Of a stretch of DNA of 24,000 nucleotides, positions 1 to 24,000 are shown in pieces. The stretch's first letter is position 1, and each line of letters begins with the position of its first letter. Below the pieces are notes generated by a model. It worked only from the letters and a program-made list of their open reading frames with translations. It was not told the DNA's origin and made no database searches. The DNA is from Candidatus Iainarchaeum sp. (GTDB lineage: Archaea > B1Sed10-29). The stretch spans positions 1 through 24,000 of the forward strand of contig PWMI01000075.1 in the NCBI GenBank assembly GCA_003558235.1, given 5' to 3'. The translations under genes were made by a program, and so were the position numbers.

Positions 1-1
1 A

Positions 2-460
2 CCCAAAACATACACAGCATGCTACCTCGACCTCTGCCTACACTCACAGCAACAAAGACCAGTAACACACATAGAAGAAACACTACAACAAGCACAAAAA
101 ACACACATAGTATTCGAAGGAGAAGAAAACAGAACAGAAGAAAACCCAATGACCTTCCAAGCAGCAACCAAGATGATAACCGCAGCAGGAAGAAAAACAA
201 CCATAACCCAAGAAAACATCTACGTAGTAACACACAGAAACAACCAACCAATCAAATGCGAAAACCTACTCGACCAAGAGTTCCCACTAAAACACTGCCA
301 AGAACTACAACCACAACAAAACGAAATGACAATACACCTAAAGTACCCAAACCACCACGAAAACAGAGTAGACATAGAAAACAACAAAATAACAATCAAA
401 ACCAAATCACCACAAGACCTACTAGCAACAGCCACATTCCTAGAACAAAAATTCTTCTAG
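2..460 (+). CDS. hypothetical protein, 5'-truncated by the window edge
   Basis: Frame 2 is open from nt 2. There is no stop in the 49 codons upstream of the ATG at 149 that the ORF track uses, and the frame ends at TAG 458-460. Codons in this frame end almost only in A or C, like the neighbouring real genes. The overlapping 19..489 ORF is a low-complexity R/K/N/T shadow. No family recognised. Confidence 0.5.
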   Translation, partial: PKTYTACYLDLCLHSQQQRPVTHIEETLQQAQKTHIVFEGEENRTEENPMTFQAATKMITAAGRKTTITQENIYVVTHRNNQPIKCENLLDQEFPLKHCQELQPQQNEMTIHLKYPNHHENRVDIENNKITIKTKSPQDLLATATFLEQKFF

Positions 461-485
461 GAAAAACCCCAAAGGAAGTAAATAG

Positions 486-1406
486 ATGAAACTAAACAAA
501 AACATACTCTGGATAACCCTAGCAGTAGCAGTAATAGCAGCACTCGCGATACACACAGACCCCACCGAAATAACACAAGCAAACCCAGCGCTACTAGTCG
601 CAGCAGCAGCAACATTCACAGCATCAATCTACACATGGTTCCTAGCATGGAACCACCTAATGAAAGAACCATTCAAAAAATGCATAAAGATAAACACCAA
701 GTCACTCATGGGCATATTCGCGCCGATGGGACTAGGAACAGACCTACTACGAGCATACTTCTCCAAAAAAGAACAAATAAGTGGATCAAGAGCAATAGCA
801 GCGAGCTTCATGGTCAAGTTCTGGAAGTTCCTACTGATGTTCTTCCTAATGCTACTAGCAATAGTCCTACTAGCAACAAGAACACCCGAGTTCCTCCAGC
901 AAGCACCCTCATTCATAGCAGCACTACTACTAACCATGGCCGGAGCAGTAATAGTACTACTATTCAGATTCAAAGCAGTAGCACAAAAACTAAACAAATT
1001 ACTCAAAAGATACCCCATGATCAGGTTCCACGAAGAACTAAAACACCAGTTCCACGAACTAACACCACGAACAACAGCAACACTAGTAACCACACTAGCA
1101 GCATCAACTCTACTAGAAGTAGCAACAGTCTACCTACTATTCCTATCAATAGGAGTAAACCTAACAATGATACAGATATTCATATTCACAGCAGTAGCAC
1201 ACAGCCTAGTACTAGTACCACTAACCCCACAAGGAATAGGAATAGCAGAAGGAGGAGGATACATACTACTATCCATGACCTACTTCGCACTACCCAAAGG
1301 AACAATAGGAAGCTTCCTAATACTATGGAACATAGTAAGAATATGGGTACCCAGCGCAGTAGGCCTAGCCACAACAATCATAGACAAAGGAACAAAGAGG
1401 AGATAA
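486..1406 (+). CDS. polytopic membrane protein, flippase-like (UPF0104 / lysyl-PG-synthase TM-domain type)
   Basis: 306 aa with about 8 hydrophobic segments. A 'PLTPQGIGIAEGGG' loop resembles the P-G-G-x-G-x-x-E signature of the UPF0104 family. Its stop (TAA 1404-1406) lies 1 nt before the start of the GT2 gene, a pairing typical for this family. Confidence 0.6.
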   Translation: MKLNKNILWITLAVAVIAALAIHTDPTEITQANPALLVAAAATFTASIYTWFLAWNHLMKEPFKKCIKINTKSLMGIFAPMGLGTDLLRAYFSKKEQISGSRAIAASFMVKFWKFLLMFFLMLLAIVLLATRTPEFLQQAPSFIAALLLTMAGAVIVLLFRFKAVAQKLNKLLKRYPMIRFHEELKHQFHELTPRTTATLVTTLAASTLLEVATVYLLFLSIGVNLTMIQIFIFTAVAHSLVLVPLTPQGIGIAEGGGYILLSMTYFALPKGTIGSFLILWNIVRIWVPSAVGLATTIIDKGTKRR

Positions 1407-1407
1407 A

Positions 1408-2103
1408 ATGATATCAATAATCATACCATCATACAACGAAGAACAAAACATAGAAAAAGCAGTAAAAGAAATGAAAAAACTAAAACTCAAAGAAAAACAC
1501 GAAGTAATAGTAGTAGACGACGGATCAACAGACAAAACAGCGGAAAAAGCAGAAAAAGCAGGAGCAGACCAAGTAGTAACCTACAAACAAAACCAAGGAA
1601 AAGGTTACGCAATGAGAAAAGGAACAGAAAAAGCAAAAGGACAAAAAATACTATTCAGCGACGCAGACCAATACACCACGAAAGACATATCACTATTCAT
1701 GAAAAAACTAGAACAAGCAGACATAGTAATCGGAAAAAGAGACTTCACTAAGATACCATGGCCAAGAAGAATAAACATAGGACTAACAAAACTAGCAATC
1801 CTACTAGCAACAGGAAAAACCATCCAAGACCCCATCTGCGGAATAAGAGCAATGTACAAAAAAGACATCCAGAAACTCAACCTACAAGAAAACAGATTCG
1901 AAGTAGAATCAGAGATAAACCTAAAAGCACTCAAAAGAAAAATGAGCATCCAGTACGTACCAATACACATAGAATACCCAGAAGGAACATTCAAAGTAAA
2001 CAAACTAAACTGGACAAACAGCTTCAAAATCATCAAGTACCTAGTAAAATCAGTACTACAATCATGGGCAGGAACATACGGAGAAAAACACCAAGCCAAA
2101 TGA
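1408..2103 (+). CDS. family 2 glycosyltransferase (polyprenol/dolichol-phosphate hexosyltransferase-like)
   Basis: 231 aa. The N-terminus 'ISIIIPSYNEEQNI', 'VIVVDDGSTDKT' and the 'FSDADQ' DxD-type motif form the classic GT-A / GT2 pattern (Dpm1/GtrB/ArnC-like). Confidence 0.85.
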   Translation: MISIIIPSYNEEQNIEKAVKEMKKLKLKEKHEVIVVDDGSTDKTAEKAEKAGADQVVTYKQNQGKGYAMRKGTEKAKGQKILFSDADQYTTKDISLFMKKLEQADIVIGKRDFTKIPWPRRINIGLTKLAILLATGKTIQDPICGIRAMYKKDIQKLNLQENRFEVESEINLKALKRKMSIQYVPIHIEYPEGTFKVNKLNWTNSFKIIKYLVKSVLQSWAGTYGEKHQAK

Positions 2104-2274
2104 AACGACCTAAAGAGATACAGACACCACCAAAACAAAAGAAAAAACCCATGAGCAAGTGAAACAAACCCAAAGACAAACTAGAGAAAGAGACGAGTTT
2201 AAAGAACAGATAAACCACGAGGACCCCAACACTTCACCCACCAACCACGAAAAACACGAATAAAAAGTGATCAA

Positions 2275-3759
2275 ATGAACATGAAACAACTGACATACAA
2301 ACAGAAACTACTCATACTCACATGCATCGCGATCACGGTATTCGCAATGCCACAGATCCTAAGAACAACACTACACCACGACTCCATGTTAGGATCAACC
2401 ACATACTACCACAGAAGAGTAGCACACCTAGTAGTATCAGGGCAACAGATAGATCCACTATCCTTCGGAGGCAGACCCATAACCTACCCACCAGGATTCT
2501 CATGGATGATAGTACTAACCCCGCTCCCAGAGTTCCTACTAGCACCACTCATAGGAGGACTAGGGATAATAGTAGGATACTACTTCGTCAAAGAACTCGG
2601 ACTAACCGACAAACAAGCACTATACTCCTCGATGTTCCTATTCTTCAACCCAGCATACGCATACTTCGCAGTACACCTCAACCCAAGGCTACCAGCCATA
2701 ATAATGATGGTCATAGCCTACATAATGATAAACAAAGACAACAAAAAGATCAACTACCTCTCAGCAATCCCCGTAGCAGCATCACTCATAACCAGCCCGA
2801 TGATAGGAGCCACACTGATAGTAGTAGGGCTAATCGCATTCAGGAAAAAAATCAAGAAGATGGTAGCACCATTCTCAGCAGCAACACTAGCATTCATGAT
2901 ACACTTCGTACCGATAATAGCTGAAAACGGGTTATTCCAAAGCCACGAAGCATACGAAATATTCACGGAATTAAACAGAGGAATACAGTACTTCATACTA
3001 GAATCAGGACTAACAGCAATATCCTTCACAGTAGTAATGGTAATCCTAGCAGCATACGGGTTCTTCAAACTCAACGACCCACAATCAAAACCAGTTCGAG
3101 AATGGCTACTAATCGGAACCATCGCGTCACTAGCAATATTCAACAGAATGAACGATGTACTGATCTACCCAGTATCCATACTAGCTGGAGTCATCCTAGC
3201 AACACACGTAGACGGCCTCAGAGAAACACTGAAACTAGAGTGGATACCAAGAAAATGGTTAAAAAGAATCCTTTGGGCATACCTAATAATCCTCGTAGTG
3301 GTTCCAGGAATAGGGATGATAACCATAGACCCATCACCAGAACAACACGAAGCAATGATGTGGATAAAACAAAACACCCCCGAAAACGCAACGATAATGG
3401 CCTACTGGTGGGAAGGCCACTACATAACAGGGATAGCCGACAGAAGAAACGTAATGGACGCTTACCTCGAGTTCGCCCCTGAAGTGGACGAAAGATACGA
3501 AGACGTGAGGATGGTAATGTTCGGATCGAGAGCAGAAAAAACAATAGAAATAATGCAGAAGTACAATGCGGAGTACATCCTCTACAGGATAGATACAGGC
3601 AGAAACCACTGCTCAGGGTTCCCATACGTCTCCAAACACGGAAAATTCGAAGAAGTGTTCTCAAACGAAGAATACAGGATATATAAACTCAGGGAAGAAC
3701 CCATCTCACCAGGATCAGACCTATGCGAAGCAATAGACGAAAAAAGAAGAGAAAAATAG
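2275..3759 (+). CDS. GT-C glycosyltransferase, short AglB/STT3-like oligosaccharyltransferase
   Basis: 494 aa with a multi-TM N-terminal part. The first external loop 'HHDSMLGSTTYYHRRVAHLVVSG..IDPLSFGGRPITYPPG' matches the STT3/AglB D-x-x...YYH-x-R...D...YP-x-G pattern. The C-terminal soluble part has 'AYWWEGHYITG' (codons 3406-3420) at the WWDYG position. It is followed by 'AEKTIEIMQKYNAEYILY', which resembles the conserved STT3 C-terminal block. Confidence 0.6.
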   Translation: MNMKQLTYKQKLLILTCIAITVFAMPQILRTTLHHDSMLGSTTYYHRRVAHLVVSGQQIDPLSFGGRPITYPPGFSWMIVLTPLPEFLLAPLIGGLGIIVGYYFVKELGLTDKQALYSSMFLFFNPAYAYFAVHLNPRLPAIIMMVIAYIMINKDNKKINYLSAIPVAASLITSPMIGATLIVVGLIAFRKKIKKMVAPFSAATLAFMIHFVPIIAENGLFQSHEAYEIFTELNRGIQYFILESGLTAISFTVVMVILAAYGFFKLNDPQSKPVREWLLIGTIASLAIFNRMNDVLIYPVSILAGVILATHVDGLRETLKLEWIPRKWLKRILWAYLIILVVVPGIGMITIDPSPEQHEAMMWIKQNTPENATIMAYWWEGHYITGIADRRNVMDAYLEFAPEVDERYEDVRMVMFGSRAEKTIEIMQKYNAEYILYRIDTGRNHCSGFPYVSKHGKFEEVFSNEEYRIYKLREEPISPGSDLCEAIDEKRREK

Positions 3760-3760
3760 A

Positions 3761-5062
3761 TCAATCCAAACAATCAATCCTTCCGAAAACACCCAAATCG
3801 GTTTCAAGTACCTCGGAGAACTCAGCCTCTTCATTCCAGTAATCGGGCTCCCAGATAACGTTTCCATCGAACTTCCAGAGGAAAACAGCCACATCTTCAC
3901 ATGAAGTCTTCTCCTCAAGCTCCTCATAGGTCCTCGGGAGCTTCCTAAATCTATCGGAACCCATCAACCACCTAATCTGCTCATCATTAACCTGCATGTA
4001 GACTAAGCCATCCTCGTAACTCGAGATAGATTCTACTCCATCAAGGTACCTCTGCACACCCCAGTTCCTCTGAGCCTGCCTGAACCTAGCGAACACGAAG
4101 GCCCCGGAAAGAACGAGGGAAACAATCAAAATCAAAGCCATTACCCTGTTTCTCTCCACTCTAGCCAGCCCCTTCGCCGAAGGGAGCAGTAATCCAGGCA
4201 AAAAGAAGATAGTGTACCTAGCAACCCACGTAGCACTAAGCAACAGGGTCCCAGCTATCACCAACAAGCAGTAGACAAGGGAAAACCTAACGAAGGTATC
4301 GGAAAGATCCAGATTCCTCCTACCCCATAACAAGAGGAGCAACACAGGACCTAACCCTACCATAAACATCGAGATGAAGCTACTCAAACCAGGGAGAGCT
4401 ATCGGGTAAGAGTAACTCAAAGAGTACTCCAAGAAAAGGAACATGCTTGAACCCACCAAAAGAGTATACCCTACCAAAGGAGCAAAAGTAGAGACCAAGA
4501 ACCTCTTAAACTCGATCTTACTGTGAAAAAAGAGAAAAACAGGGACAAGGAGCAACGCGGATTCCTTCGTAAGAACAGCTAAAGACAGAGAAAGACCCAT
4601 CAACCAACTCCACTTATTCCTCTCCCCCCACTCATTCACAGATCTCAGGAAGAAGTAAATGGATAACAGAACGAAGAAGAGCACCACGTAGTCAGTCAAG
4701 ATGGTTCCGAAGTAGAACAGTAGTATGGGAGAGAACAGCATAGGTAGAGAAGTAAGTTCTCCTGGAAGATCAACTTCTTCACCTATCCAGAAAGCCAGTA
4801 AGAAAGACCCTAAAACAAAGGGAAGAATGATTAAGCGAGCCAACGGAAGAGGCAGACCAGAAACCAAGAAAGCAAGGGAAACGAAGGCAGGTCTGTGAAC
4901 CACGGGTATCTCGATCTCAGGGACCAGATTCCCTCTTCTCCAGGAAGCACCGTAGTTTAGGTATGTTCCCTCATCAGGATACATCCTAGGAATGAAAGAA
5001 GTAGCTAAAAACAGTAGGGTTACCAAGATCATGATTGAAACTATCTTACTTTTCCTATTCAT
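3761..5062 (-). CDS. GT-C glycosyltransferase, PMT/ArnT-like (GT39/GT83-type) membrane protein
   Basis: Multi-TM protein with 'YPDEGTY' in the first loop after TM1, the DE motif of PMT/ArnT-type lipid-linked-sugar transferases. The track ORF starts at a TTG (5089). The ATG at 5062 (MNRKSK...) is preceded by a G-rich SD-like run and overlaps the truD stop by 8 nt, so I prefer 5062. Confidence 0.6.
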   Translation of the reverse strand: MNRKSKIVSIMILVTLLFLATSFIPRMYPDEGTYLNYGASWRRGNLVPEIEIPVVHRPAFVSLAFLVSGLPLPLARLIILPFVLGSFLLAFWIGEEVDLPGELTSLPMLFSPILLFYFGTILTDYVVLFFVLLSIYFFLRSVNEWGERNKWSWLMGLSLSLAVLTKESALLLVPVFLFFHSKIEFKRFLVSTFAPLVGYTLLVGSSMFLFLEYSLSYSYPIALPGLSSFISMFMVGLGPVLLLLLWGRRNLDLSDTFVRFSLVYCLLVIAGTLLLSATWVARYTIFFLPGLLLPSAKGLARVERNRVMALILIVSLVLSGAFVFARFRQAQRNWGVQRYLDGVESISSYEDGLVYMQVNDEQIRWLMGSDRFRKLPRTYEELEEKTSCEDVAVFLWKFDGNVIWEPDYWNEEAEFSEVLETDLGVFGRIDCLD

Positions 5063-6137
5063 CTTTTTTCCCCCCAAAAAGTTGCTCAACAGCGACCGTT
5101 GCGTAGCTTCCCTTCGGAAGAGAGAACCTCACTATGTAAAAACCTTCTCCTTCTTTTAGTACTTCAAAGTCCTTTAACTCTATGAACAATTTTCTCCTTT
5201 CACCTTTCTCACTTAATTCGGGCATCAGGGTGTTCTTGAATTCACTCAGATCCAAATCGTGTCTTTCAAGGATTCTAAGTTCGTATTCGTTCTTTATTTC
5301 TGTGTTGTACCCGTAGATTGGTCCTTCTTCCTGTTTTAAGTTCTTGTCCTTGATTTCATCTATGTATTCATTGAACAGGTGGCTCTGGTATGCGTGTATG
5401 AACATCATCTCCAGGTTATGGGGGAGTTTCCGTATCGCGTTTATGTGGTCCAGAGGGTACTCTGAGAGGTGGTGCAGCAGTATTCTTTCGTAGTGCAAGT
5501 ATGTGGGGTACTTCTTGAGAGCTTCTTTGAACTCTCCCCAGTTTTCTTTCAACCATCTTCTGGCTTTGAGGGACTCCGGGTTTTCCTCTGGAAACTCTTT
5601 GGTCAGGTATATCTTCACTGCTTCCTCGGGATTCTTCTTCAGGAGTGCTTCTCCAACCAGGTGAGTTATGGGCCTCACTTTGCCGAATCGCTGGTGCCCG
5701 TAGTAGTTTGGTATCTTCTCAGGAACTTCCTTTATCTCCTGATCTGTCTCTATCTTCAGGGTGAATCTGTTTCCCCAGAGGTCTCCCAAAGTGACTCTTT
5801 CCCGTGTTTTTTCCAGTGGAAAGAGTTTCAGTCTGTTTACCTTGAAGTTTTCCAGGTCCTTCGGCTCCGCATTATTTATTGATACTCTTTGACTGGTTAC
5901 TGCTCGCTTATCTTTTGTTCCCGCAAAACCTATTCTTCTCCTGGACATATGGAGGGAGTTGCTTATTGCTCTTATGGCTTTGTTCTGCTCCCAGTTATCT
6001 TTTATAAGAACACAGATTAGGTTGTTTCCCTTTGTCTCAGGATTAAATTTGTAGTCTTTTTTTATTTCCAGGACATCTTCGTTGGGAGTTATCTCTTCTA
6101 CAACGAAGTCTTCTGGGCTCTTCTTTATTTGATACAT
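5055..6137 (-). CDS. truD: tRNA pseudouridine synthase TruD/Pus7 family
   Basis: 360 aa. It starts 'MYQIKKSPEDFVVEEI' and contains the catalytic 'GFAGTKDKRAVTSQ' block (G-x-K-D-x-x-A-x-T-x-Q) diagnostic of TruD/Pus7. Confidence 0.9.
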   Translation of the reverse strand: MYQIKKSPEDFVVEEITPNEDVLEIKKDYKFNPETKGNNLICVLIKDNWEQNKAIRAISNSLHMSRRRIGFAGTKDKRAVTSQRVSINNAEPKDLENFKVNRLKLFPLEKTRERVTLGDLWGNRFTLKIETDQEIKEVPEKIPNYYGHQRFGKVRPITHLVGEALLKKNPEEAVKIYLTKEFPEENPESLKARRWLKENWGEFKEALKKYPTYLHYERILLHHLSEYPLDHINAIRKLPHNLEMMFIHAYQSHLFNEYIDEIKDKNLKQEEGPIYGYNTEIKNEYELRILERHDLDLSEFKNTLMPELSEKGERRKLFIELKDFEVLKEGEGFYIVRFSLPKGSYATVAVEQLFGGKKDE

Positions 6138-6146
6138 CTATCTTCC

Positions 6147-8546: not shown

Positions 8547-8554
8547 TGGTATTT

Positions 8555-9882: not shown

Positions 9883-9900
9883 CGTTCATGATTATTTTTT

Positions 9901-16696: not shown

Positions 16697-16797
16697 TCTT
16701 TCACTGCTTCTTCGTTTTATGCTTGCATTGGTTCTACGTTGTTCAGGGAGATAGAACTAGTTGGCTTCCTCTTTTCGGAGGGTTCTCGTGGTTTAAT

Positions 16798-16956
16798 TTA
16801 CCTTAGTTTGTAGAGTAAAGATACTTTTTCCAGGAAGTTCCTGTGGTTTATTCCTTTTTCTCTACATCTCGTCTTCATCTCGTTGAATAGTTCTTCTTCG
16901 TCTTCGGTGAACTTTACTCCGGTTGATGCTGGTTTTCTAAATTTTTCTAGGCTCAT
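16798..16956 (-). CDS. small ribbon-helix-helix (CopG/Arc-like) protein, 52 aa (below the ORF-track size cut-off)
   Basis: My translation: MSLEKFRKPASTGVKFTEDEEELFNEMKTRCREKGINHRNFLEKVSLLYKLR*. It has a beta-strand/helix/helix layout. A strong SD (GGGAGGA) lies 5 nt upstream. The ATG overlaps the stop of the upstream small ORF (TAATG). Confidence 0.45.
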   Translation of the reverse strand: MSLEKFRKPASTGVKFTEDEEELFNEMKTRCREKGINHRNFLEKVSLLYKLR

Positions 16957-17123
16957 TAGTATCCTCCCTTCTCTATTTTTTTAAGGAAACCGTCTTCCAT
17001 CTTGAATTCATGGCTTGGAACTTTAGGACATCTCCATATGTCGTCCTCTCTCTTCAGAACTATGGTTTCCCCCGTTTTAGCGAAACAACGTGGACATGCT
17101 TCTTTTTGTTCAACTGTACCCAT
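16956..17123 (-). CDS. small zinc-ribbon-like protein, 55 aa (below the ORF-track size cut-off)
   Basis: My translation: MGTVEQKEACPRCFAKTGETIVLKREDDIWRCPKVPSHEFKMEDGFLKKIEKGGY*. It has a C-x2-C...C-x5-H arrangement. An SD GGTGGT lies 3 nt upstream of the ATG, and the gene sits 64 nt downstream of the RuBisCO stop on the same strand. Confidence 0.45.
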   Translation of the reverse strand: MGTVEQKEACPRCFAKTGETIVLKREDDIWRCPKVPSHEFKMEDGFLKKIEKGGY

Positions 17124-17187
17124 GTTACCACCTACTGTAATTAGGGAAGGAGTATTATTTAACCTTTGCCCTAGGCTCTGCTTTTTT

Positions 17188-18450
17188 TCAACTTGTGCCC
17201 CACAAGTCTAGTGCTTTTTTGAGCTCGATGTGGTCTTCCGCGTAGTCCCATGGGTCGATTCCCTTCATCTTAGCATCTACAACTTGCCTCATCGCTCTGG
17301 CTCCTGCTTTAGATCCATCAGGGTGCCCGTGCACGCCCCCTCCAGACTGGATTATTACGTCGTTCCCCATGAATTCCATTAGGGGATCCACGTGTCCTGG
17401 GTGCAGTCCTCCACTGGATACTGCGAAGACGGGTTTTATGTGGTGCCATTCCTGCCCGAGTTCTTTTGTTTCGTCTCTGGATTTTATCTTCATCTTTTCC
17501 ACGTTTTCAGCTATCATCCTAACCTCCTCTTTTCCCCCCTCCATCTTACCTACTGCTGTTCCTACGTGGAGTTGATCTACTCCCATGAGTCGATATAGTT
17601 TCGCTAGTGCCAGCATAGTTATTCCATGTTTCTTGTTTCTTGTTAGGGCTCCGTGCATCGCTCTGTGGGCATGCATGATTAAATCTGGTCCATTTTCCCT
17701 CATCTCCTGAACTGCTGAGAACCCAGTGGTCAATACATCTATCATCATGTACCGTCCACCCATCTCCTTTATCAATTCTGCTCTTTCCATCATCTCGCTT
17801 GACCCAGCGGTCGTGTTACACATGTAGACCTTTTTTTCTCCTGTTTCCTCTTCAGCTATGTCTCTCGATTCAAGGGTGGCTGCTAACCTATCTTCATAGA
17901 TGTTGAAGGGCTGGCTCGTTAGGTTTTCATCGTCTTTCACTACGTCGCATCCACCTATCCATGATTCTTCAGCGACCTTGGCGTGGCTCTTCGCATCCAG
18001 GCCTAGTTTTGGCTTTACTATGGTGCCGACTAAGGGTCTTTCAGGCACTTCCATTGTTTTCCGGACTCCTTCGATACCGTACCTTGGTCCCGCGTATTCT
18101 TCGATCATCTTCTTAGGGAACTTTACGTCCACTAACCTTAGGTTATCTATTGCCTTCATTCCGAATATATTTCCAGCTATCGAGCTCATCACCTGGGGGA
18201 TGTTGCTCAATTCAAACAGTTCTGAAGGATAAGCCACCTCCACGTAAGGATCATTGAGTTTGTAAGCCCTCGCTTTTATCCTCTTCGCTCTCTCGTTGAG
18301 TGTACCAAGGTGCGTCCACGTTCCAACGCTTGATTCCTTCGCGATGTGGTCACAAGCCCTCTCAAAACTGTTCTCTGAGTTGGGTTCAACTCTAAATAAA
18401 CATATCAAATCATCTTCACTCGGAGCATAATCTTTTTCCACAAATTCCAT
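17188..18450 (-). CDS. rbcL: ribulose-1,5-bisphosphate carboxylase/oxygenase large subunit, form III (archaeal type)
   Basis: 420 aa. Catalytic blocks are intact: 'GTIVKPKLGL', 'VKDDENL' (carbamylated Lys plus Mg ligands), 'HAHRAMHG', 'SSGGLHPG' and 'QSGGGVHGHP'. The length and the absence of a small subunit gene fit form III. Confidence 0.9.
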   Translation of the reverse strand: MEFVEKDYAPSEDDLICLFRVEPNSENSFERACDHIAKESSVGTWTHLGTLNERAKRIKARAYKLNDPYVEVAYPSELFELSNIPQVMSSIAGNIFGMKAIDNLRLVDVKFPKKMIEEYAGPRYGIEGVRKTMEVPERPLVGTIVKPKLGLDAKSHAKVAEESWIGGCDVVKDDENLTSQPFNIYEDRLAATLESRDIAEEETGEKKVYMCNTTAGSSEMMERAELIKEMGGRYMMIDVLTTGFSAVQEMRENGPDLIMHAHRAMHGALTRNKKHGITMLALAKLYRLMGVDQLHVGTAVGKMEGGKEEVRMIAENVEKMKIKSRDETKELGQEWHHIKPVFAVSSGGLHPGHVDPLMEFMGNDVIIQSGGGVHGHPDGSKAGARAMRQVVDAKMKGIDPWDYAEDHIELKKALDLWGTS

Positions 18451-18553
18451 TCAATCACCAACATCATAAAGACAGTTCAGCTTAAAAAGATTTCTAGGTT
18501 TCAATAATCAATACATTAATTAAAGACCTATGCGTTATAACACATGATTCAAA

Positions 18554-19258
18554 ATGGCTAGGGTACCTACAGGAATACCGGGACTGGATGAGTTAATACA
18601 AGGGGGACTGCTTGAAAAGTCAACGGTCCTAGTTTCAGGTGGAGCAGGGACAGGAAAGACCATATTCTCCATGCAGTTCTTCTACAAAGGAGCAGAAGAG
18701 TACGATGAACCAGGAATCTACATAAGCATGGAAGAAGGAGCAACGAACCTCTGGTGGAACATGAAGAACTTCAGGTGGAGAGTGACAGAACTAGAAAGAA
18801 AGAACCTACTACAAATATACAAGGTAGGAACCATAGACCCAAGCAAGTTCAAGAACAAGTTCGAGGAAGAAGTGAACACCATAAAAGACATGGTGGACGA
18901 CATGGGAGCCAAGAGACTCGTGATAGACTCCACCACAGCGTTCGGAATGTGGATGGAATCAGAATCACAAACAAGGTACTCACTATTCAAACTAAACGAC
19001 GCACTCAAAGAGATGGACCTAACAACGATCATGACATCCGAAGCCATCGGAGGAAAGAAGAGCTTCAGCAGATTCGGGGTAGAAGAATTCATAACAGACG
19101 GAGTAATCAGACTATACTTCAAGCCCCCCACAAGAGCACTATTCGTCAGAAAGATGAGGGGAACGGACCACGACAAGAAACCCCACCCATTCAAGATCAC
19201 CAACGAAGGCGTAGTCGTGAACGCCAAGCAAGAAATACTTTGGGAAAGCTTGGAATGA
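18554..19258 (+). CDS. KaiC-like / RecA-superfamily ATPase (single domain)
   Basis: 234 aa. 'VPTGIPGLDELIQGGLLEKSTVLVSGGAGTGKTIFSMQFFYKGA..EPGIYISMEE' is the KaiC/RadA-like N-terminus with a Walker A motif. 'RLVIDS' is the Walker B motif. Confidence 0.8.
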   Translation: MARVPTGIPGLDELIQGGLLEKSTVLVSGGAGTGKTIFSMQFFYKGAEEYDEPGIYISMEEGATNLWWNMKNFRWRVTELERKNLLQIYKVGTIDPSKFKNKFEEEVNTIKDMVDDMGAKRLVIDSTTAFGMWMESESQTRYSLFKLNDALKEMDLTTIMTSEAIGGKKSFSRFGVEEFITDGVIRLYFKPPTRALFVRKMRGTDHDKKPHPFKITNEGVVVNAKQEILWESLE

Positions 19259-19277
19259 AAAAACTCCCGGTGAACAA

Positions 19278-20132
19278 ATGAACTACTTAAGCAAAATCAA
19301 AGCATTCCTAGAACTAACAAGAATGAAACACGGGCTAATGCTAGCCCTAGCAGTAATAGTAGGTCAACTGGTGACCCTGGGAAAGCTACCAGTCAACAAG
19401 ATACTTATACCTTCACTAATCACCCCCATACTAATCTCAGCGGGAGCCATGGCCATAAACGACTACATGGACTACGAAGCAGACAAGAAGAACAACAGAA
19501 AAGACAGGCCACTGGTAACAGGAACGATAAGTAAGAAAGCAACCCTACTCACAGCACTGATTCTCCCCCCAGCAGGAATCATCTCAGCGTACTACATCAA
19601 TCTCCAAGCAGTAACTATAGCACTCATCTTCACAGCACTAAGCTACTCCTACGCAGTCAACCTAAAGAAGATCCTCCTCATAGGGAACGTATCCATAGCA
19701 GCCAGCATGGCAATACCATTCATCTTCGGAGCAGTAACAGTCTCCAACCAAGTACCCATAGCAATATGGATACTCTCAACCATGGCATTCCTATCAGGAA
19801 CAGGAAGAGAGATAGTCAAATCGATACAAGACATGAAAGGAGACAAAGAACAAGGAAGAAGAACCCTCCCGATAGTCGCAGGAAAAAAGAAATCAACCTG
19901 CTCAGCAGTAATGCTCATACTAACCGCGATAGCGATATCTCCCGTACCATACCTAAAACTACAAGGATACCTAGGAAGCATACCCTACATCCTGACAGTC
20001 ACAGTAGCAAACGTTGTTTTCATACTAGCACTCCATGGATTAATCAGAGAAGAAAACTACGAGAAATTCAGGAAACTCAGCCTAATAGCCATGGCCATAG
20101 CACTCATAGCCTTCCTAGCACCACTGATCTAA
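19278..20132 (+). CDS. UbiA-family prenyltransferase, likely digeranylgeranylglyceryl phosphate synthase
   Basis: 284 aa with about 8 TM segments. The first Asp-rich motif is 'NDYMDYEADKKN' (NDxxDxxxD) and the second is 'KSIQDMKGDKEQGRRTLP' (DxxxD-like), as in archaeal DGGGP synthases. Confidence 0.75.
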   Translation: MNYLSKIKAFLELTRMKHGLMLALAVIVGQLVTLGKLPVNKILIPSLITPILISAGAMAINDYMDYEADKKNNRKDRPLVTGTISKKATLLTALILPPAGIISAYYINLQAVTIALIFTALSYSYAVNLKKILLIGNVSIAASMAIPFIFGAVTVSNQVPIAIWILSTMAFLSGTGREIVKSIQDMKGDKEQGRRTLPIVAGKKKSTCSAVMLILTAIAISPVPYLKLQGYLGSIPYILTVTVANVVFILALHGLIREENYEKFRKLSLIAMAIALIAFLAPLI

Positions 20133-20275
20133 GTGAAAATATGGTTGACAGAAGAAAAAAGGCAAAAGACATAGACAAGATGAGAGAGCAAGACAAGGTA
20201 AGTAAATATATAGGATAAAAACGTTCTAAAAGCAAAGGGAGACAGCTTCCCAAACCCTGAACAACGGTGTGCCGC

Positions 20276-21022
20276 ATGGAAAAACAACTACAATCAGAGG
20301 GAGAAGTCAAGAACAAGATAGATCTGCATGAAATATCCCAAAGACACGACTGGAGAGAAGTCCTAAAAGACATAGTAAAAAAAGAAAAAATGGATCCATG
20401 GGACATAGACGTATCAAAACTAGTCAAAGAATTCATAGAGATAATAAGACAAGCAAACAAGATGGAGTACAGAATCCCAGCCAACGCGATACTCGCAAGC
20501 TCCATACTACTGAGAAAAAAAAGCGACTCATGGATACTAAGAGAAGAAGACGAATCACAAGACACCTGGGACGATATATTGATAACACCAGACCAAATAC
20601 CACTACCAAGAGAAAAAATACCTGAACCAAGCCCAAAGAAAAGAAGAACCAAGAGAAAAGTCAGCCTAGATGAACTCATAGAAGCAGTAGACGACGTCAT
20701 AGAAAAAGAAAAAACCAAGGCAATAAAGGAAACAAAGAAAAAAGAAACACCAATACAGAACATCGTGCCCAAATACATGCTTGAACTCGCCAACACCAAT
20801 GGAGAAGACTTCGAAGACAGAATAGAAGAAATAAGAAAAAGAATCGAAAGAAGCATAGACAACGAAAACCTAACGAGGTTCACTGAAATAATAGAAGAAA
20901 AAACCAAGGACGAAATAATAAACACCATGCTACCAGTACTCCACCTAGCCAACAAAGGATCCATATCCATATGGCAAGAAGAGATCTTCGGAGACATATT
21001 CATACTCTACCCAAACAAATGA
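20276..21022 (+). CDS. scpA: segregation and condensation protein A (kleisin)
   Basis: 'DPWDIDVSKLVKEFIEIIRQANKMEYRIPANAILASSILLRKKS' matches the ScpA N-terminal winged-helix block. An acidic/basic linker and a C-terminal WH domain follow. The gene lies directly upstream of scpB. The track start is GTG 20267; I use the ATG at 20276. Confidence 0.75.
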   Translation: MEKQLQSEGEVKNKIDLHEISQRHDWREVLKDIVKKEKMDPWDIDVSKLVKEFIEIIRQANKMEYRIPANAILASSILLRKKSDSWILREEDESQDTWDDILITPDQIPLPREKIPEPSPKKRRTKRKVSLDELIEAVDDVIEKEKTKAIKETKKKETPIQNIVPKYMLELANTNGEDFEDRIEEIRKRIERSIDNENLTRFTEIIEEKTKDEIINTMLPVLHLANKGSISIWQEEIFGDIFILYPNK

Positions 21023-21040
21023 ACGAAAGGAGCAACAAAC

Positions 21041-21502
21041 ATGAAGGAAATAATAGAAGCGGCACTATTCATGTCACCAGAACCACTAACACTAGACACA
21101 TTGAGCAAGGTAAGTGGCCTAAACTACTCACAAACACTTAAAGCAATAGAAGAGATACAGAAACAATACAAATCAAGAGAAACATCACTCAAGATACAGA
21201 AAGTCGGTAAAAAATACGAGATGACCCTAAAAGAACACTACAAAGACAAAGTAAGCTACCTCGCAGTAGACCCAGACCTAAGCAAAGCAGAACTAAGAAC
21301 ACTCGGACTAATAGCAATAAGGGAACCCATAAAACAGAGCAAAGTCGCGAAGGTGATAGGAAACAAAGCATACCAGTACATAGGGAAACTGGAAAGAAAA
21401 GGATTCATCAAAACAGAAAGAGAAGGTAGAACAAAGTTATTGAACACCACCGACAAGTTCAAGGACTACTTTGGAAAGGACCCACAGGAAGTGGACTGGT
21501 AA
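21041..21502 (+). CDS. scpB: segregation and condensation protein B
   Basis: 153 aa. 'IIEAALFMSPEPLTLDTL' is the ScpB signature start and 'LSKAELRTLGLIAIREPI' the second winged helix. An SD GGAG lies upstream. Confidence 0.8.
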   Translation: MKEIIEAALFMSPEPLTLDTLSKVSGLNYSQTLKAIEEIQKQYKSRETSLKIQKVGKKYEMTLKEHYKDKVSYLAVDPDLSKAELRTLGLIAIREPIKQSKVAKVIGNKAYQYIGKLERKGFIKTEREGRTKLLNTTDKFKDYFGKDPQEVDW

Positions 21503-22699
21503 CTAATCAATACCCAGAATATTCTTATCGATGTAGTATTTCTGAATCTCCTCACCAACTTCCTTGAAACCCGTTACGCCCTTATCCGCAAGGTCCCGAA
21601 GGAACATCTCCTTATCCCTAAGTTCAGTTTGAACCTCCTTCAAAGACTTTCCTGAAATCTTCGCCAACTCCTCAAGCTTTATGCTCGGCACATCGGTCCT
21701 CTCAACATTATCGGTTTGAGGATTATAAGTAAAAACCTCGTTGAAAGAAACACCCACCTCCGAAGGAGAAACCTCAACTATCGTTGAAACCCTTCTAAAC
21801 ATCTTATCCCCACGAATCACCTTCTTCTGAACCACCATTAAGTCGACCAGAGGAAGCATATTAACTGGAACATTCATCGGGGGATTAGTCAACCTCGATT
21901 TAGATTCAGAAGGGGAGTTAGCATGAAGAGTCCCCATAGCGGAGTGGCCTATGTTCATCGCGTTAAAAAGAGATTCAGCCTCAGAACCCCTAACTTCCCC
22001 CATAATCACTCTATCTGGCCTCATTCTAAGAGCATTAATCAAAAGATCATTCATAGTTATCCCAGGATTCTCCTGGGAGCCTGGAACCGCCTCCATTCTA
22101 ACCAGGTTCTCCCTGCCGAAGAAGTTAAGCTCAAGTGTATCTTCTATCACAGTAATCTTATCTGAACGAGGTACAAATGCGGTTAGGGTATTTAGGGTTG
22201 TCGTTTTACCAGTACCCGTACCGCCTATCGAGAGTATGTTCTGAGGATAGTTCTTCTCTCCCTCCACGTTCGTCCAGAGGAAAGCTGCAGCTTCAAATGA
22301 AAGAGTATCATTCTGAACTAAGTCGATTATCGAGAAAGGTTTCTCCCTGAACTTACTTATCGTTATGGTGGGTCCCTCGGGGGTAGCTGGAGGGATAGTT
22401 GCGTTTAAACGTGATCCATCTGGAAGACGCGCATCCAAGAAAGGTTTAGATCGATTTATGTAATCACTACTGTTGTCAGCAGCTTCCTTTATAACTCCCA
22501 TCATCTCATCTTCATCCATGATAAGGTTCGTTCTGCATCTGCCCTGATCCCTATGGAAAATGTAAACGTGTCTACCTGGTCCATTGACCGAGATCTGTTC
22601 CAAGCGATCATCATTCATCAGTATCTCGAAAGAAGGGCTATCCATCAAGTAGTTTTTCCCATCTTTCTCTTCAATTATCTGAACTCCAGAGTTAACCAT
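21503..22699 (-). CDS. type II/IV secretion-system ATPase (PilB/VirB11/FlaI superfamily)
   Basis: 398 aa. Walker A is 'GGTGTGKTTTLN' and the Asp box 'VIEDTLEL'. Walker B plus the His box is 'RMRPDRVIMGEVRGSEAESLFNAMNIGHSAMGTLHANS'. The stop abuts the scpB stop with a 0-nt gap. A TTTATA box about 30 nt upstream of the ATG suggests a leaderless transcript. Confidence 0.85.
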   Translation of the reverse strand: MVNSGVQIIEEKDGKNYLMDSPSFEILMNDDRLEQISVNGPGRHVYIFHRDQGRCRTNLIMDEDEMMGVIKEAADNSSDYINRSKPFLDARLPDGSRLNATIPPATPEGPTITISKFREKPFSIIDLVQNDTLSFEAAAFLWTNVEGEKNYPQNILSIGGTGTGKTTTLNTLTAFVPRSDKITVIEDTLELNFFGRENLVRMEAVPGSQENPGITMNDLLINALRMRPDRVIMGEVRGSEAESLFNAMNIGHSAMGTLHANSPSESKSRLTNPPMNVPVNMLPLVDLMVVQKKVIRGDKMFRRVSTIVEVSPSEVGVSFNEVFTYNPQTDNVERTDVPSIKLEELAKISGKSLKEVQTELRDKEMFLRDLADKGVTGFKEVGEEIQKYYIDKNILGID

Positions 22700-22759
22700 G
22701 TAATCAAGTAGTAAACATCGAGTAACTATAAATTTGTTTTGGTCTAAAGCACGAAGCGA

Positions 22760-22834
22760 TGGGCCAGGGGAGATTTGAACTCCCGATCTCCCCGTTATCA
22801 GCAGGGCGCTTTAACCAGGCTAAGCCACTGGCCC
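22760..22834 (-). tRNA. tRNA-Ile (anticodon GAT), intron-less
   Basis: Minus-strand read: GGGCCAG TG GCTT AGCCTGGTTA AAGC G CCCTG CTGATAA CGGGG AGATC GGGAG TTCAAAT CTCCC CTGGCCC A. It is 75 nt and folds into a complete cloverleaf. Confidence 0.9.
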
Positions 22835-22970
22835 ACGAGAAAAATGAACTACAGGTAAATTATAGTCCACAATGATTAAAAAGGGTAGATGTATACTAAA
22901 AGTGGAATGCTTATAAAGCATCATGAAAATAAATATGTAAAATAATTGAAATCGTGGAGGATGAGAAGAT

Positions 22971-24000
22971 ATGATGTCAAAAATTAAGAAAAAGGAACTG
23001 GAACTGAAGAAGCTTAAACAGAAAGAAGCGCAAGAAGCAGCTAAAGAGTTGAAGAAGAAGATAGCAAAGGACTCAACTCTTACAAAGAATGTTTCTGATG
23101 TTGAACTAAAACGTAGAGAAGAAAAAATTGGAAATTTAGTCCAAAATCTGAAAACATATGAAGAAGTGAAAGGATCATATTCCCGCACAAAACTAAAAGA
23201 ACTTAAAAAGCAGATAGAAGAAGGTCAAAAGTATGTAAAAAATTACATCCTTCCAGATGTGAAAGAGGTACAAAAAGAATATGCTGGTGGAACCAAAGGA
23301 AGACGTCTTAAGAATCAGATAAATCGTCTTGAAGAAATCTCTGGAGTTAAAGTTGAGAGAAAGAAAGCAGAAGCAGCAGAAGCCGAGAGAAAGAAAGAAC
23401 AAATTAAACAAAGAACTGGGGAACTAGGAGAAAAATATGCTGAAGAAGTAAAGTGGAAAGCAGAACTGAGAGAACTAGGAAAAAAGTATGAAGAAGCAGG
23501 AACAAGGAAGGAAAAAGAAAAAGCTCTAAAAGAATTAAAGAAACATCAAAAAAGATCACCAGAATATGAAAAAGGGCTAAAGGAATTGAAGGAAAAGCAA
23601 CGAAAAGCTACTTCAAGCAAAAACAAAAAGAAATTCGGGAAAAAAATAGAAGAATACAAGGGAAAAGGACCAACAGCTCAGAGACAGGCATTAAAAGAAG
23701 TGTCTGAAGAAGCACAACAAGGAATGAAGATGTTCAGAGGTCCAAAGCAGACTATGGAAGGAGTCAACAAACAAGTTGAAAGGTTACAAGGTAGAATGGC
23801 GCACCTCAAGGAAGAAGCCTCAAAAGGAAATATAAGCACAGCAAAATACAACAGAGAAAGAAACAACCTCGTGGGCCAAATAAAGAAAGTAAGAAAATCA
23901 GCATCAGGACCTGCTAAGAGAGGAAAAACTCCAAAATGGGTTAAAACAGAAGAAAAAGAAACTAAAAGAAGAAAAAAAGACTCAGACATTAAAAGAGAAC
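22971..24000 (+). CDS. Lys/Glu-rich coiled-coil-like protein, 3'-truncated by the window edge (absent from the ORF track)
   Basis: I translated this frame by hand. ATG ATG at 22971 follows GGAGG (22956-22960). The frame then stays open for 343 codons to the window end: MMSKIKKKELELKKLKQKEAQEAAKELKKK...KWVKTEEKETKRRKKDSDIKRE. The three minus-strand track ORFs in this interval (22820..23188, 23193..23411, 23678..23989) are F/S/L-rich antisense shadows. No TM segment, signal peptide or family recognised. Confidence 0.6.
   Translation, partial: MMSKIKKKELELKKLKQKEAQEAAKELKKKIAKDSTLTKNVSDVELKRREEKIGNLVQNLKTYEEVKGSYSRTKLKELKKQIEEGQKYVKNYILPDVKEVQKEYAGGTKGRRLKNQINRLEEISGVKVERKKAEAAEAERKKEQIKQRTGELGEKYAEEVKWKAELRELGKKYEEAGTRKEKEKALKELKKHQKRSPEYEKGLKELKEKQRKATSSKNKKKFGKKIEEYKGKGPTAQRQALKEVSEEAQQGMKMFRGPKQTMEGVNKQVERLQGRMAHLKEEASKGNISTAKYNRERNNLVGQIKKVRKSASGPAKRGKTPKWVKTEEKETKRRKKDSDIKRE

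Follow-up and report, generated by a model that had tools for sequence, protein, structure and literature searches.

What process gives the two strands of an archaeal chromosome sharply different base compositions, and why does the polarity of that difference flip several times within 24 kb? The question is raised by a 24,000-nt stretch (the window), which is chromosomal DNA of a small uncultured DPANN archaeon. Its features are as follows, "mirrored" marking genes with complementary synonymous composition and AT3 denoting sense-strand AT skew at third codon positions.

2-3759, plus strand: four co-oriented genes with the strongest sense-strand A/C bias of the window
2-460, plus: partial gene (third-position T 0/153)
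486-1406, plus: LPG_synthase_TM by Pfam (third-position T 2/307)
1408-2103, plus: GT2 by Pfam (third-position T 2/232)
2275-3759, plus: GT-C-like membrane protein by Pfam, "GT-C A" (third-position T 12/495)
3761-5089, minus: GT-C/PMT-family gene with a Pfam PMT match, "GT-C B", mirrored
5055-8388, minus: run of Dph2, aRF1 and TruD; sense strand A/C-rich, plus strand T/G-rich
5055-6137, minus: TruD (AT3 skew +0.43)
6147-7352, minus: aRF1 (AT3 skew +0.78)
7435-8388, minus: Dph2 (AT3 skew +0.61)
8560-9042, plus: two-gene module, toxin-antitoxin-like by eye, an unskewed compositional island
9901-10665, minus: TrmB-family regulator, sense strand A/C-rich (AT3 skew +0.58)
10795-12033, plus: surface or membrane-anchored protein gene (AT3 skew +0.47)
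12069-14033, minus: MetRS, moderate sense-strand A/C bias (AT3 skew +0.53, fC 0.81, fG 0.41)
14144-14830, plus: PHP-domain gene between the minus-strand genes XPD and MetRS, mirrored over its whole length
14789-18450, minus: XPD helicase, Zn-ribbon ORF and RuBisCO, sense strand A/C-rich
14789-16696, minus: XPD helicase, strong bias (AT3 skew +0.77)
between XPD and RuBisCO, minus: small Zn-ribbon ORF
17188-18450, minus: form III-like RuBisCO, weak bias (AT3 skew +0.39)
18451-18553: divergent 103-nt spacer with a polarity flip (AT skew +0.19)
18554-21502, plus: KaiC/RadA-like ATPase, UbiA prenyltransferase, ScpA and ScpB, sense strand strongly A/C-rich
21503-22699, minus: T2SSE/FlaI-like ATPase (FlaI), convergent with ScpB without a spacer
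22971-23999, plus: K/E-rich coiled-coil-like gene running off the window

The strand asymmetry is real and stronger than first described: AT skew per 1 kb reaches +/-0.55 and stayed at or below 0.18 in 200 shuffles, bearing out the extreme asymmetry with polarity flips and mirrored codon usage reported in the first-pass annotation. The asymmetry is concentrated at third codon positions; A versus T is its main component, and the G/C component is weaker. In the first four plus-strand genes only 16 of 1187 codons end in T and AT3 skew is +0.92 to +0.97; across nine genes, sense-strand T3 is 0.01-0.06 and AT3 skew +0.77 to +0.97, against a background of -0.06 +/- 0.10 in 78 MetRS genes from unrelated genomes. 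At the first and second codon positions T occurs at normal frequency (e.g., T2 =.41), yet T3 is ~.01, and all proteins of the window are intact, with homologues in relatives; amino-acid-changing positions compared with L081 orthologues gave no clear strand-specific shift. The sense strand is A/C-rich in 15/19 complete genes scored, in line with the earlier statement that most genes are of this kind, and plus-strand genes are on average more skewed than minus-strand genes. The five 60-nt hand counts and the 91 A- or C-ending codons among the first 94 non-Met codons of GT2 were exact; the share of G/T-ending codons, put at about 63% for PHP and at a majority for GT-C B, was measured at 64.5% and 64.9%. 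Two earlier details did not hold: the plus strand after ~22.9 kb, described as G/T-rich, is A- and G-rich (A+C 0.58-0.66), and the composition of RuBisCO varies along its length no more than that of other genes (chi-square p=0.056).

The decisive comparison concerns four-fold degenerate sites. On the sense strand of strongly skewed genes in either orientation these are A.62, C.23, G.10, T.05 (n=848), and on the sense strand of three mirrored genes T.52, G.23, C.13, A.12 (n=252); Fisher's test, on counts back-calculated from these rounded fractions, gave p ~2e-76. Since the mirrored sites are the reverse complement of the skewed ones, selection on codons or tRNAs cannot produce the pattern. Spacers between co-oriented genes carry the skew as well: 2104-2274 (171 nt, non-coding; A89 C43 G25 T14), 7353-7434 (T38 A13), 16697-16960 (T118 A43) and 20133-20266 (A65 T19). 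Together these observations uphold the earlier view of the asymmetry as a mutational property of the strand and not a codon preference. The sum fC+fG is 1.05-1.38 in the 19 gene segments that are syntenic or skewed, the two strands sharing it in varying proportions, and lower in the two unskewed genes (0.91 in 8755-9042; 0.72 in the K/E-rich gene, corrected frame), which suggests a single A:T->G:C pressure allocated by strand. Some codon-level selection does exist, since moderately skewed genes preferentially keep GNT codons.

Polarity follows the orientation of gene runs. The turning points of cumulative A-T (~5040, 8560, 9030, 10730, 12034 and 18390) match transcription-unit borders, including both ends of the surface gene. 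This lone plus-strand gene within a minus-strand run retains its own sense-strand A bias, with a minimum at ~10730 and a maximum at 12034 delimiting a one-gene flip, and both its arrangement and its behaviour recur in L084; the earlier claim that polarity is largely irrespective of gene orientation is contradicted even by this single gene. Three of four divergent spacers are weak or neutral (AT skew +0.04, +0.19 and -0.20); the neutral one at 10666-10794 (+0.04) contains TATA boxes (TTTAAATA) for both flanking genes, and the minimum at ~18390 lies near the spacer 18451-18553. The module bounded by turning points 8560 and 9030 yielded no match in a Pfam search, and other small genes occupy its position in relatives; its gene 8755-9042 is about neutral (third positions A.31, C.11, G.24, T.33). 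The K/E-rich gene is A-rich without the T->C shift (third positions A.57, C.08, G.18, T.17; fC 0.48).

The mirrored genes, namely GT-C B, PHP and the 3' half of FlaI, each sit either directly downstream of an oppositely oriented run or within one. GT-C B shares its orientation with TruD and converges with the plus-strand run 2-3759; at synonymous sites it is T/G-rich on the sense and A/C-rich on the plus strand (four-fold sites A.12, C.20, G.22, T.47; fG=0.74), and the maximum at ~5040 marks a switch at the overlap of these co-oriented genes, which supports the earlier remark that no intergenic origin lies there. Skew decays with distance into the convergent genes: plus-strand third-position A+C in GT-C B falls from 0.69 (3761-4658) to 0.55 (4661-5087; p=0.003). 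FlaI adjoins the plus-strand run 18554-21502 (AT3 skew +0.85 to +0.89, T3.03-.04); its 3' half is mirrored (four-fold T.56, A.08; plus-strand third positions A80 C71 G24 T25, A+C 0.75) and its 5' half is near neutral (A63 C45 G44 T47, A+C 0.54; p=1e-5). PHP has four-fold sites A.16, C.17, G.23, T.44 and fG 0.78, and the 3'-terminal 150 nt of MetRS are neutralised (A+C 0.50).

In more than 20 related contigs (L001, L002, L081-L085, L086-L102), those genes of the window that each contig yielded keep their order and relative orientation, with extra genes inserted between them in some relatives; L103 differs at the TruD/GT-C junction. T2SSE stays opposite ScpB (in 16 relatives), PHP opposite XPD and MetRS, and GT-C A still converges with the pair TruD > GT-C B; GT-C B has matching place and orientation in L101 and L102 and is mirrored in L102. 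At similar distance from the window, relatives may be strongly skewed (L084/L102, L101, L103, L083), weakly skewed (L081, L001, L002; A3>T3 in every gene) or unskewed (L082, L086-L100), and since some are unskewed the trait is lineage-specific. Orthologues rank similarly in four skewed genomes, with the GT2 operon and aRF1 high, TruD lower and GT-C B mirrored. PHP, whose orientation is unchanged in all relatives, provides a natural experiment that fits an effect of distance: it is mirrored in L083, where it adjoins XPD as in the window, and unmirrored with a weak sense polarity of its own in L084, where an fn3 gene, itself neutral to mirrored, separates it from XPD. In L103 a smooth gradient (.03-.07,.1,.2,.3-.45) runs across four co-oriented genes into an opposite-strand gene.

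These patterns are probably best explained by an extremely strong strand-asymmetric substitution bias that takes its polarity, locally, from the direction of transcription, with spill-over by read-through. Composition, four-fold complementarity, spacer skew, gradients, synteny, and recurrence and variability in relatives are observed; from them we infer polarisation by transcription and read-through, with transcription direction taken from gene orientation. On the non-template (sense) strand T would be driven to C, with G->A accumulating as well, so that G and T are depleted and A and C gained; equivalently, the template strand would accumulate A->G and C->T. Each site's net skew would depend on how transcription in the two directions balances there. 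Co-oriented runs transcribed strongly or unopposed would acquire an A/C-rich sense strand; the bias, extending through spacers and ~0.6-2.4 kb beyond the last gene, is attributed to read-through, and weakly expressed genes facing or embedded in such a run would take on complementary composition and mirrored codon usage. The surface gene, if well expressed in its opposite orientation, would keep its own polarity, and recently acquired genes may have yet to develop skew. Speculatively, miscoding lesions of keto bases (O4-alkyl-T and O6-alkyl-G) could remain on the non-template strand when repair is directed at the template; alternatively, and equally speculatively, repeated rounds of repair synthesis on the template strand might introduce G.T-mispair errors.

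As a caveat, several observations sit uneasily with transcription as the polarising process. T6, T5 and T5 tracts lie directly 3' of XPD on its sense strand and should end some transcripts before or inside PHP; the 2.4-kb opposite-strand gene of L103, mirrored over its full length with little decay, would need long read-through; and the polarity is opposite to that of textbook transcription-associated asymmetries. RuBisCO should be well expressed yet has one of the weakest skews, which requires the added assumption of codon selection opposing the mutation bias. The lack of a clear strand-specific shift at amino-acid-changing positions also weighs against this reading, as do the view of Paravel et al. 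(2026) on archaea (PMC12999951) and the fact that transcription-coupled repair is, to our knowledge, not established in most archaea.

It is possible, though unlikely, that selection on RNA and not mutation favours A/C-ending codons and A/C-rich leaders, through the tRNA set, the advantage of unstructured or more stable U/G-poor mRNAs, or avoidance of U-tract termination; mirrored genes would then be under relaxed selection, or abundant antisense RNA would be the selected molecule. The A/C-rich sense strands of most genes whatever their orientation, the A3>T3 of even weakly skewed relatives, the retained GNT codons and the absence of terminator-like tracts of T>=5 from T-poor sense strands all agree with such selection. 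The mirrored four-fold sites, however, complement the skewed ones exactly (A.08-.16, T.44-.56) and lie far outside the baseline of the relatives; composition shifts between the halves of a single gene (FlaI), and gradients cross gene borders and orientations in L103. Junk read-through RNA would moreover need to outweigh a gene's own codon selection, and the presumably highly expressed RuBisCO and MetRS are least biased.

An improbable reading invokes two components, a process unrelated to transcription that sets polarity over 5-15-kb domains (domain-wise repair, or the direction of replication where zones of initiation and termination are numerous) and a smaller sense-strand effect. It would account for L103, where the plus strand hardly varies in composition over 14 kb, then changes polarity a single time within an overlap of two co-oriented genes, and where opposite-strand genes mostly follow the block, as well as for the similarly placed switch at ~5.04 kb and the greater average skew of plus-strand genes in the window. 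Yet it requires an origin and terminus ~13 kb apart and a second pair around the 1.24-kb surface gene, so that the closely spaced replication boundaries entertained earlier would be separated by 1-13 kb; skew falls gradually along gene runs in four genomes, with no step; and the sense, leading-like strand is A/C-rich, the reverse of the keto-rich leading strand usually seen. The orc1/cdc6 gene and ORB-like repeats that had been proposed as landmarks were sought in the window and neither is present, the divergent spacer 18451-18553 being just 103 nt long and free of ORB-like repeats.

Several flips within 24 kb might suggest that a genome with strong replication-linked bias has recently undergone inversion of genes or segments. 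This is very improbable, since an inverted gene would carry its skew along and clash with its block whereas opposite genes match the block, and since across all three junctions relatives at 57-66% protein identity have exactly the same gene order and orientation. A technical artefact (chemical conversion of reads, or a chimera arising in assembly or by MDA inversion) has nothing but the odd composition in its favour and is hardly credible, as the loss of T only at third positions in genes encoding intact, homologous proteins indicates evolutionary change and not base conversion, and as identical skew and mirrored genes recur in at least four independent assemblies (NCBI, JGI from two samples, ENA, Logan).

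For the preferred transcription-polarised bias, a counterpart of comparable magnitude is found in mitochondria. ND6, the minority-strand gene of vertebrate mitochondria, has reversed codon usage. Animal mitochondrial genomes show strand asymmetry with an A+C-rich light strand (PMC3269012, PMC2939890). The window resembles them in four-fold magnitude, in its A/C-rich sense strand and G/T-rich complement, in a signature that A->G and C->T on one strand would be expected to leave, and in the complementary synonymous codons of other-strand genes; unlike them, it is part of a cellular chromosome, flips every 1-14 kb with gene-run orientation and not once per molecule, and does so without a known single-stranded replication intermediate or any need for one. 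Escherichia coli shows C->T on the non-transcribed strand, and mammals a G+T excess on the coding strand. Mutational asymmetry associated with transcription in mammalian genes (Green et al., 2003, as far as cited in PMC3269012) likewise tracks transcription direction, extends to non-coding DNA that is transcribed, and changes sign at divergent promoters; in contrast, the window's sense strand loses T and G instead of gaining them, the effect is larger by about an order of magnitude, and spill-over reverses the codon usage of convergent genes.

Borrelia burgdorferi has replication-strand-specific codon usage. The same is documented for Lawsonia intracellularis (PMC2671203). Both share with the window two complementary codon usage classes arising from strand-specific mutation bias; their classes correspond to leading and lagging replichores of hundreds of kb with a G/T-rich leading strand, whereas those of the window follow local gene runs with an A/C-rich sense strand. 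Trypanosomatids, as Nilsson and Andersson are said to have described in 2005, have directional gene clusters whose skew flips at strand-switch regions. Multi-gene co-oriented transcription units and flips at convergent or divergent switch points are common to both systems, but trypanosomatid Pol II polycistrons are eukaryotic, span tens to hundreds of kb and have much weaker skews; we know of no description of mirrored embedded genes in them.

Paravel et al. (2026) argued for little strand-specific mutation or repair in archaea and attributed archaeal skews to gene strand bias and translational selection (PMC12999951); purine loading, or Szybalski's rule (PMC2447400), offers a related account. 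Skew that tracks gene orientation and an A-rich sense strand belong to this ordinary archaeal picture, which the weakly skewed L081, L001 and L002 fit. The lineage of the window differs in having a further T->C shift, seen at four-fold as well as non-coding sites, and its C exceeds its G, so that simple purine loading does not describe it; being complementary in opposite-strand genes, the shift is a strand-specific mutational signal, contrary to PMC12999951. The asymmetry is unusual in both magnitude and polarity, and it occurs in the archaea, where strand-specific mutation is said to be absent.

When composition was resolved by codon position, the A/C-rich versus G/T-rich strand asymmetry described in the first-pass annotation proved real and far stronger, but it is chiefly an asymmetry of A against T. 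Across the 24-kb window, the AT skew reached ±0.55 in 1-kb windows, compared with at most 0.18 in shuffled sequences. In nine genes distributed over both strands, third codon positions of the sense strand contain T at 0.01–0.06, A at 0.41–0.66 and C at 0.26–0.33, and only 16 of the 1187 codons in the first four plus-strand genes end in T; in a comparison set of 78 MetRS genes from unrelated genomes, the AT skew at third positions (AT3) is −0.06 ± 0.10. The five 60-nt hand counts and the three codon-usage statements of the annotation (GT2, PHP and GT-C genes) were reproduced exactly. Polarity had been described as largely irrespective of gene orientation; it follows orientation in 15 of 19 complete genes scored. 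The plus strand after about 22.9 kb is A/G-rich rather than G/T-rich, and the reported heterogeneity of the RuBisCO gene along its length is not significant.

The window, part of a contig of 43,079 bp, has a GC content of 43% and carries a compact set of archaeal genes: those for an LPG_synthase_TM protein, a GT2, two GT-C-like membrane proteins, TruD, aRF1, Dph2, MetRS, an intron-containing tRNA, tRNA-Ile, TrmB, a surface protein, a PHP protein, XPD, a form III-like RuBisCO, a small toxin-antitoxin-like pair, a KaiC/RadA-like ATPase, UbiA, ScpA, ScpB, a T2SSE/FlaI-type ATPase and a K/E-rich protein. The nearest named homologues of XPD belong to 'Candidatus Micrarchaeota', 'Diapherotrites' and 'DPANN group' archaea, and protein identity to the closest relatives anywhere is only 58–72%.

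Features of the window referred to in the text
2275–3759, plus strand: GT-C A, GT-C-like membrane protein
3761–5089, minus strand: GT-C B, GT-C/PMT-family protein
8560–9042, plus strand: toxin-antitoxin-like pair
9639–9768, minus strand: tRNA with intron, 130 nt (Rfam 59.9 bits; missed by ARAGORN)
10795–12033, plus strand: surface protein
12069–14033, minus strand: MetRS with C-terminal tRNA_bind domain
14144–14830, plus strand: PHP protein
14789–16696, minus strand: XPD
17188–18450, minus strand: RuBisCO
21503–22699, minus strand: FlaI, T2SSE/FlaI-like ATPase
22758–22835, minus strand: tRNA-Ile(GAT) (both Rfam and ARAGORN)
22971–23999, plus strand: K/E-rich coiled-coil-like protein (>343 aa), continuing past the window edge

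The toxin-antitoxin-like pair was recognized by eye as an RHH-like ORF ending near 8750, followed by a RelE/ParE-like ORF of 95 aa (8755–9042), and has no Pfam match. Its composition is unskewed, and relatives carry other small genes at the same place, for example a PIN pair in the related contig L101, which makes recent acquisition as a mobile module probable. The adjacent 596 nt (9043–9638) hold no convincing ORF or Rfam match at E ≤ 0.1; the plus strand here is T-rich and includes a G+C-rich, structured-looking segment, and an undescribed RNA might lie within it. The intron-containing tRNA was the sole match in an Rfam scan of 8389–9900. The K/E-rich protein likewise has no Pfam match, and the silent sites of its gene remain at baseline (four-fold A.50, T.31), without the T to C shift of its neighbors. 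Outside its own family, the best genome matches of MetRS were 78 loci from bacteria, Bacteroidota in nearly every case (35–39% identity), and included no other archaea, in a peptide-pattern search with possible bias; a bacterial-type MetRS could have been acquired by this DPANN group.

At four-fold degenerate sites, the strongly skewed genes contain A.62, C.23, G.10 and T.05 (n = 848), and three genes or gene parts, termed mirrored here (GT-C B, PHP and the 3′ half of FlaI), contain A.12, C.13, G.23 and T.52 (n = 252); the two compositions are reverse-complement images of each other (Fisher p ~2e-76, from counts back-calculated from rounded fractions). In two-fold codons, the strong genes have a C/(C+T) of 0.92 and a G/(A+G) of 0.26, the mirrored genes 0.49 and 0.78, respectively; Leu codons move from TTR to CTR. 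The sum fC + fG is 1.05–1.38 in 19 syntenic or skewed gene segments of any class, with a strand split that varies. In moderately skewed genes the surviving T-ending codons are mostly GNT (GAT, GTT, GCT, GGT), with C/(C+T) of 0.40–0.57 for GNT versus 0.61–0.88 for other first bases, a sign that selection on codons may counteract the mutation bias. At residues substituted relative to orthologues in the related contig L081, codon positions 1 and 2 show only a general shift from A to G/C, without a clear dependence on strand. Since stop codons need T and are thus rare in any frame of a T-poor sense strand, long spurious ORFs open in alternative frames (19–489, 635–1411, 1758–2162, 15387–16121, 18754–19281 and others) and encode low-complexity, T/N/R/K/P-rich "proteins".

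The cumulative A–T curve turns six times in 24 kb, near 5040, 8560, 9030, 10730, 12034 and 18390. The switch annotated at about 5.09 kb, within an overlap of co-oriented genes, was borne out, with its turning point (~5040) at the TruD/GT-C B overlap; 8560 and 9030 bound the unskewed toxin-antitoxin-like island, 10730 and 12034 lie at both ends of the lone, 1.24-kb plus-strand surface gene, and 18390 corresponds to the 103-nt divergent spacer between RuBisCO and KaiC. Polarity goes by the direction of transcription, as read from gene orientation, and flips at divergent promoters, and neutral transcribed sites carry it outside codons as well: intra-operon spacers have AT skews of ±0.47–0.73, and co-oriented spacers are strongly biased at 2104–2274 (A89 C43 G25 T14), 20133–20266 (A65 T19), 7353–7434 (T38 A13) and 16697–16960 (T118 A43). 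Of the four spacers at divergent promoters, three have little or no skew (AT skew +0.04, +0.19, −0.20); the fourth, between MetRS and PHP, retains the skew of its block (−0.53). Every mirrored gene lies directly downstream of, or within, a run of opposite genes: GT-C B adjoins the stop codon of GT-C A, FlaI adjoins the stop codon of ScpB, and PHP is located between XPD and MetRS. The mirrored signal weakens away from the convergent gene end: the 3′ half of FlaI has a plus-strand third-position A+C of 0.75 and the 5′ half 0.54 (p = 1e-5), and the value falls from 0.69 to 0.55 in GT-C B (p = 0.003). In MetRS, XPD and TruD, the last ~150 nt at the 3′ end are partly neutralized.

For comparison, 24 related contigs with shared window genes were fetched: L001 and L002 from GTDB genomes, L081 and L103 from ENA, L082, L083 and L104 from Logan, L084, L085 and L102 from JGI 3300000557 and 3300027784, L101 from GCA_964388265.1, and L086–L100 from JGI. 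Gene order and orientation are kept at all junctions of interest, with extra genes intervening in some relatives. The arrangement T2SSE > < ScpB < ScpA < UbiA < KaiC recurs at 16 loci; XPD > < PHP, then MetRS > < surface gene, then TrmB > at six loci; and aRF1 > TruD > GT-C B > < GT-C A < GT2 < LPG_TM in L101 and L102. None of the switches therefore stems from a recent inversion, and the mirrored genes count as native.

The relatives differ in composition. L081, L001 and L002 (GC ~33%) show an ordinary, mild excess of A3 over T3 in every gene, and the skew is absent from L082 and L086–L100 (GC 43–52%); L083, L084/L085, L101, L102 and L103 (GC 37–42%) share the phenomenon of the window. In these skewed relatives T3 is.06–.12 in XPD, and in the GT2 operon.02–.03 in L102 and L103 and.03–.09 in L101. 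Their opposite-strand neighbors are mirrored, with AT3 values of −0.31 (GT-C B) and −0.39 (h138) in L102, −0.33 (Flg_new), −0.42 (h799) and −0.24 (h478) in L103, −0.17 (fn3) in L084 and −0.12 (PHP) in L083. In L084 the fn3 gene, neutral to mirrored, is inserted between XPD and PHP, and PHP, 1.1 kb further from XPD, keeps a weak sense polarity. In L103, plus-strand third-position A+C rises smoothly over four co-oriented genes (.03–.07, then ~.1, then.1–.2), and the gradient runs on at.3–.45 into the next gene on the opposite strand. Orthologues rank alike in four genomes, the GT2 operon and aRF1 highest, TruD lower and GT-C B mirrored. By sample and MAG names, two relatives seem to come from soda-lake sediment metagenomes (L084/L085/L102, JGI 3300000557 'SL_8KL_010_SED' and 3300027784; L002, T1Sed10); 'T1Sed10' names are used in soda-lake papers (PMC6704655; PMC6146748), and a link between alkaline habitat and G·T-mispair chemistry is conceivable. 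L002 (PWHJ01000067.1), deposited as 'Bacteroidetes bacterium isolate T1Sed10_131', holds an archaeal PHP-MetRS-surface-TrmB-Dph2 cluster syntenic with the window and is almost certainly a misbinned DPANN contig.

Among known processes, only transcription matches the spatial grain and the structure of polarity, and a mutational asymmetry linked to transcription direction is therefore favored, the local value reflecting net transcription in both directions; read-through would carry the asymmetry into convergent or embedded genes. Against the weakly skewed relatives, the lineage-specific change is mainly T to C on the non-template strand, atop a pre-existing A>T sense bias, and the depletion of G relative to C on that strand points to G to A; the template strand thus seems to be the one gaining A to G and C to T. 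As candidate mechanisms, keto-base miscoding lesions might remain on the non-template strand if repair favors the template strand, or the template strand might acquire G·T-mispair errors through being resynthesized often in repair. To our knowledge, transcription-coupled repair is unproven for most archaea. A fuller proposal is tentative: in this DPANN clade, a transcription-coupled mutation or repair process may drive neutral sites almost to fixation (T ~1–5% on the non-template strand), so that the DNA would record net transcription, read-through and antisense included, at sub-gene resolution.

As a caveat, the polarity is the reverse of the classical transcription-associated one, in which T (from C) and G (from A) accumulate on the non-transcribed strand; in the window these are the two bases depleted on the sense strand. 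T6/T5 tracts, terminator-like, just after XPD argue against full read-through; a 2.4-kb opposite gene in L103 is mirrored over its full length; and RuBisCO is weakly skewed. Plausible TATA boxes upstream of FlaI, TrmB, the surface gene and KaiC do not discriminate between models. Selection at the RNA level ranks as a weaker rival and is unlikely. Because of these caveats, a block-level second component alongside the proposed transcription effect keeps some weight, although it is rather improbable. The lack of T≥5 runs on the plus strand in 1–5063 and 18434–22652, and of A≥5 runs in 5139–8692, is expected from composition alone (~0.6 expected) and is not independent evidence.

Replication alone predicts uniform replichores with flips only at origins and termini; it can neither explain flips on either side of a 1.24-kb gene nor put origin and terminus 13 kb apart, and the closely spaced replication boundaries suggested earlier are discounted accordingly. 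Of the origin features expected at the divergent switch, no Orc1/Cdc6 ORF was found in the window and a search for ORB-like repeats gave low-complexity matches only. Third-position and four-fold counts confirm that sense strands are A+C-rich, contrary to a keto-rich (G+T) leading strand. Codon or tRNA selection, which would favor the same codons in coding sequence only and most strongly in highly expressed genes, cannot yield complementary four-fold sites in native genes, skewed spacers or within-gene shifts; RuBisCO and MetRS are among the weakest-skewed genes, and native PHP, FlaI and GT-C B use complementary codons. The recent inversions proposed earlier would leave an inverted gene discordant with its block, yet the genes are concordant, and L002, L081–L085 and L086–L102 have the same order and orientation at all three junctions. 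The suggested assembly chimera fails on the recurrence of the pattern in independent assemblies and on intact proteins, bisulfite- or deaminase-converted reads on normal T and G at codon positions 1 and 2, horizontal origin of the mirrored genes on the synteny of PHP, T2SSE and GT-C B in relatives, and a UV/dipyrimidine signature on T3 loss that is not greater after pyrimidines (fC.64–.65 after T or C,.75 after A, in moderately skewed genes).

Prokaryotic strand asymmetries usually amount to a few per cent and are taken as replication signals. In mitochondrion-like asymmetry, one strand stays single-stranded for long while the DNA replicates, and a gradient extends from the origin; animal mtDNA resembles the window in its pair of A/C-rich and G/T-rich strands and in the reversed codon usage of minority-strand genes, but has one polarity per molecule, and the multiple local flips in the window speak against a single gradient of this kind. 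Transcription-associated asymmetry in E. coli and mammals follows the same logic with opposite polarity and is much weaker. Near analogues are the trypanosomatid gene clusters, where skew flips at strand-switch regions, and the replication-strand codon classes of Borrelia and Lawsonia (PMC2671203). A full-text literature search did not find such a pattern described in archaea. According to a 2026 survey, skews in archaea stem from translational selection and the orientation of genes, and archaea are much less capable of strand-specific mutation or repair (PMC12999951); the lineage of the window seems to be an exception.

Spurious ORFs could lead gene callers to annotate such genomes wrongly, and binning or HGT detection that relies on composition can go astray, as one related archaeal contig sits in a Bacteroidetes bin. 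The window represents an archaeal lineage with mitochondrion-scale asymmetry at neutral sites that tracks local gene direction. Since sister lineages have the same gene order without the bias, and syntenic relatives differ in its degree, comparing gene content could reveal a putative change in repair or polymerase behind it. If the asymmetry is transcription-coupled, operon extent and read-through would be readable from sequence alone, and the lineage would offer a natural system for archaeal transcription-coupled mutagenesis or repair.
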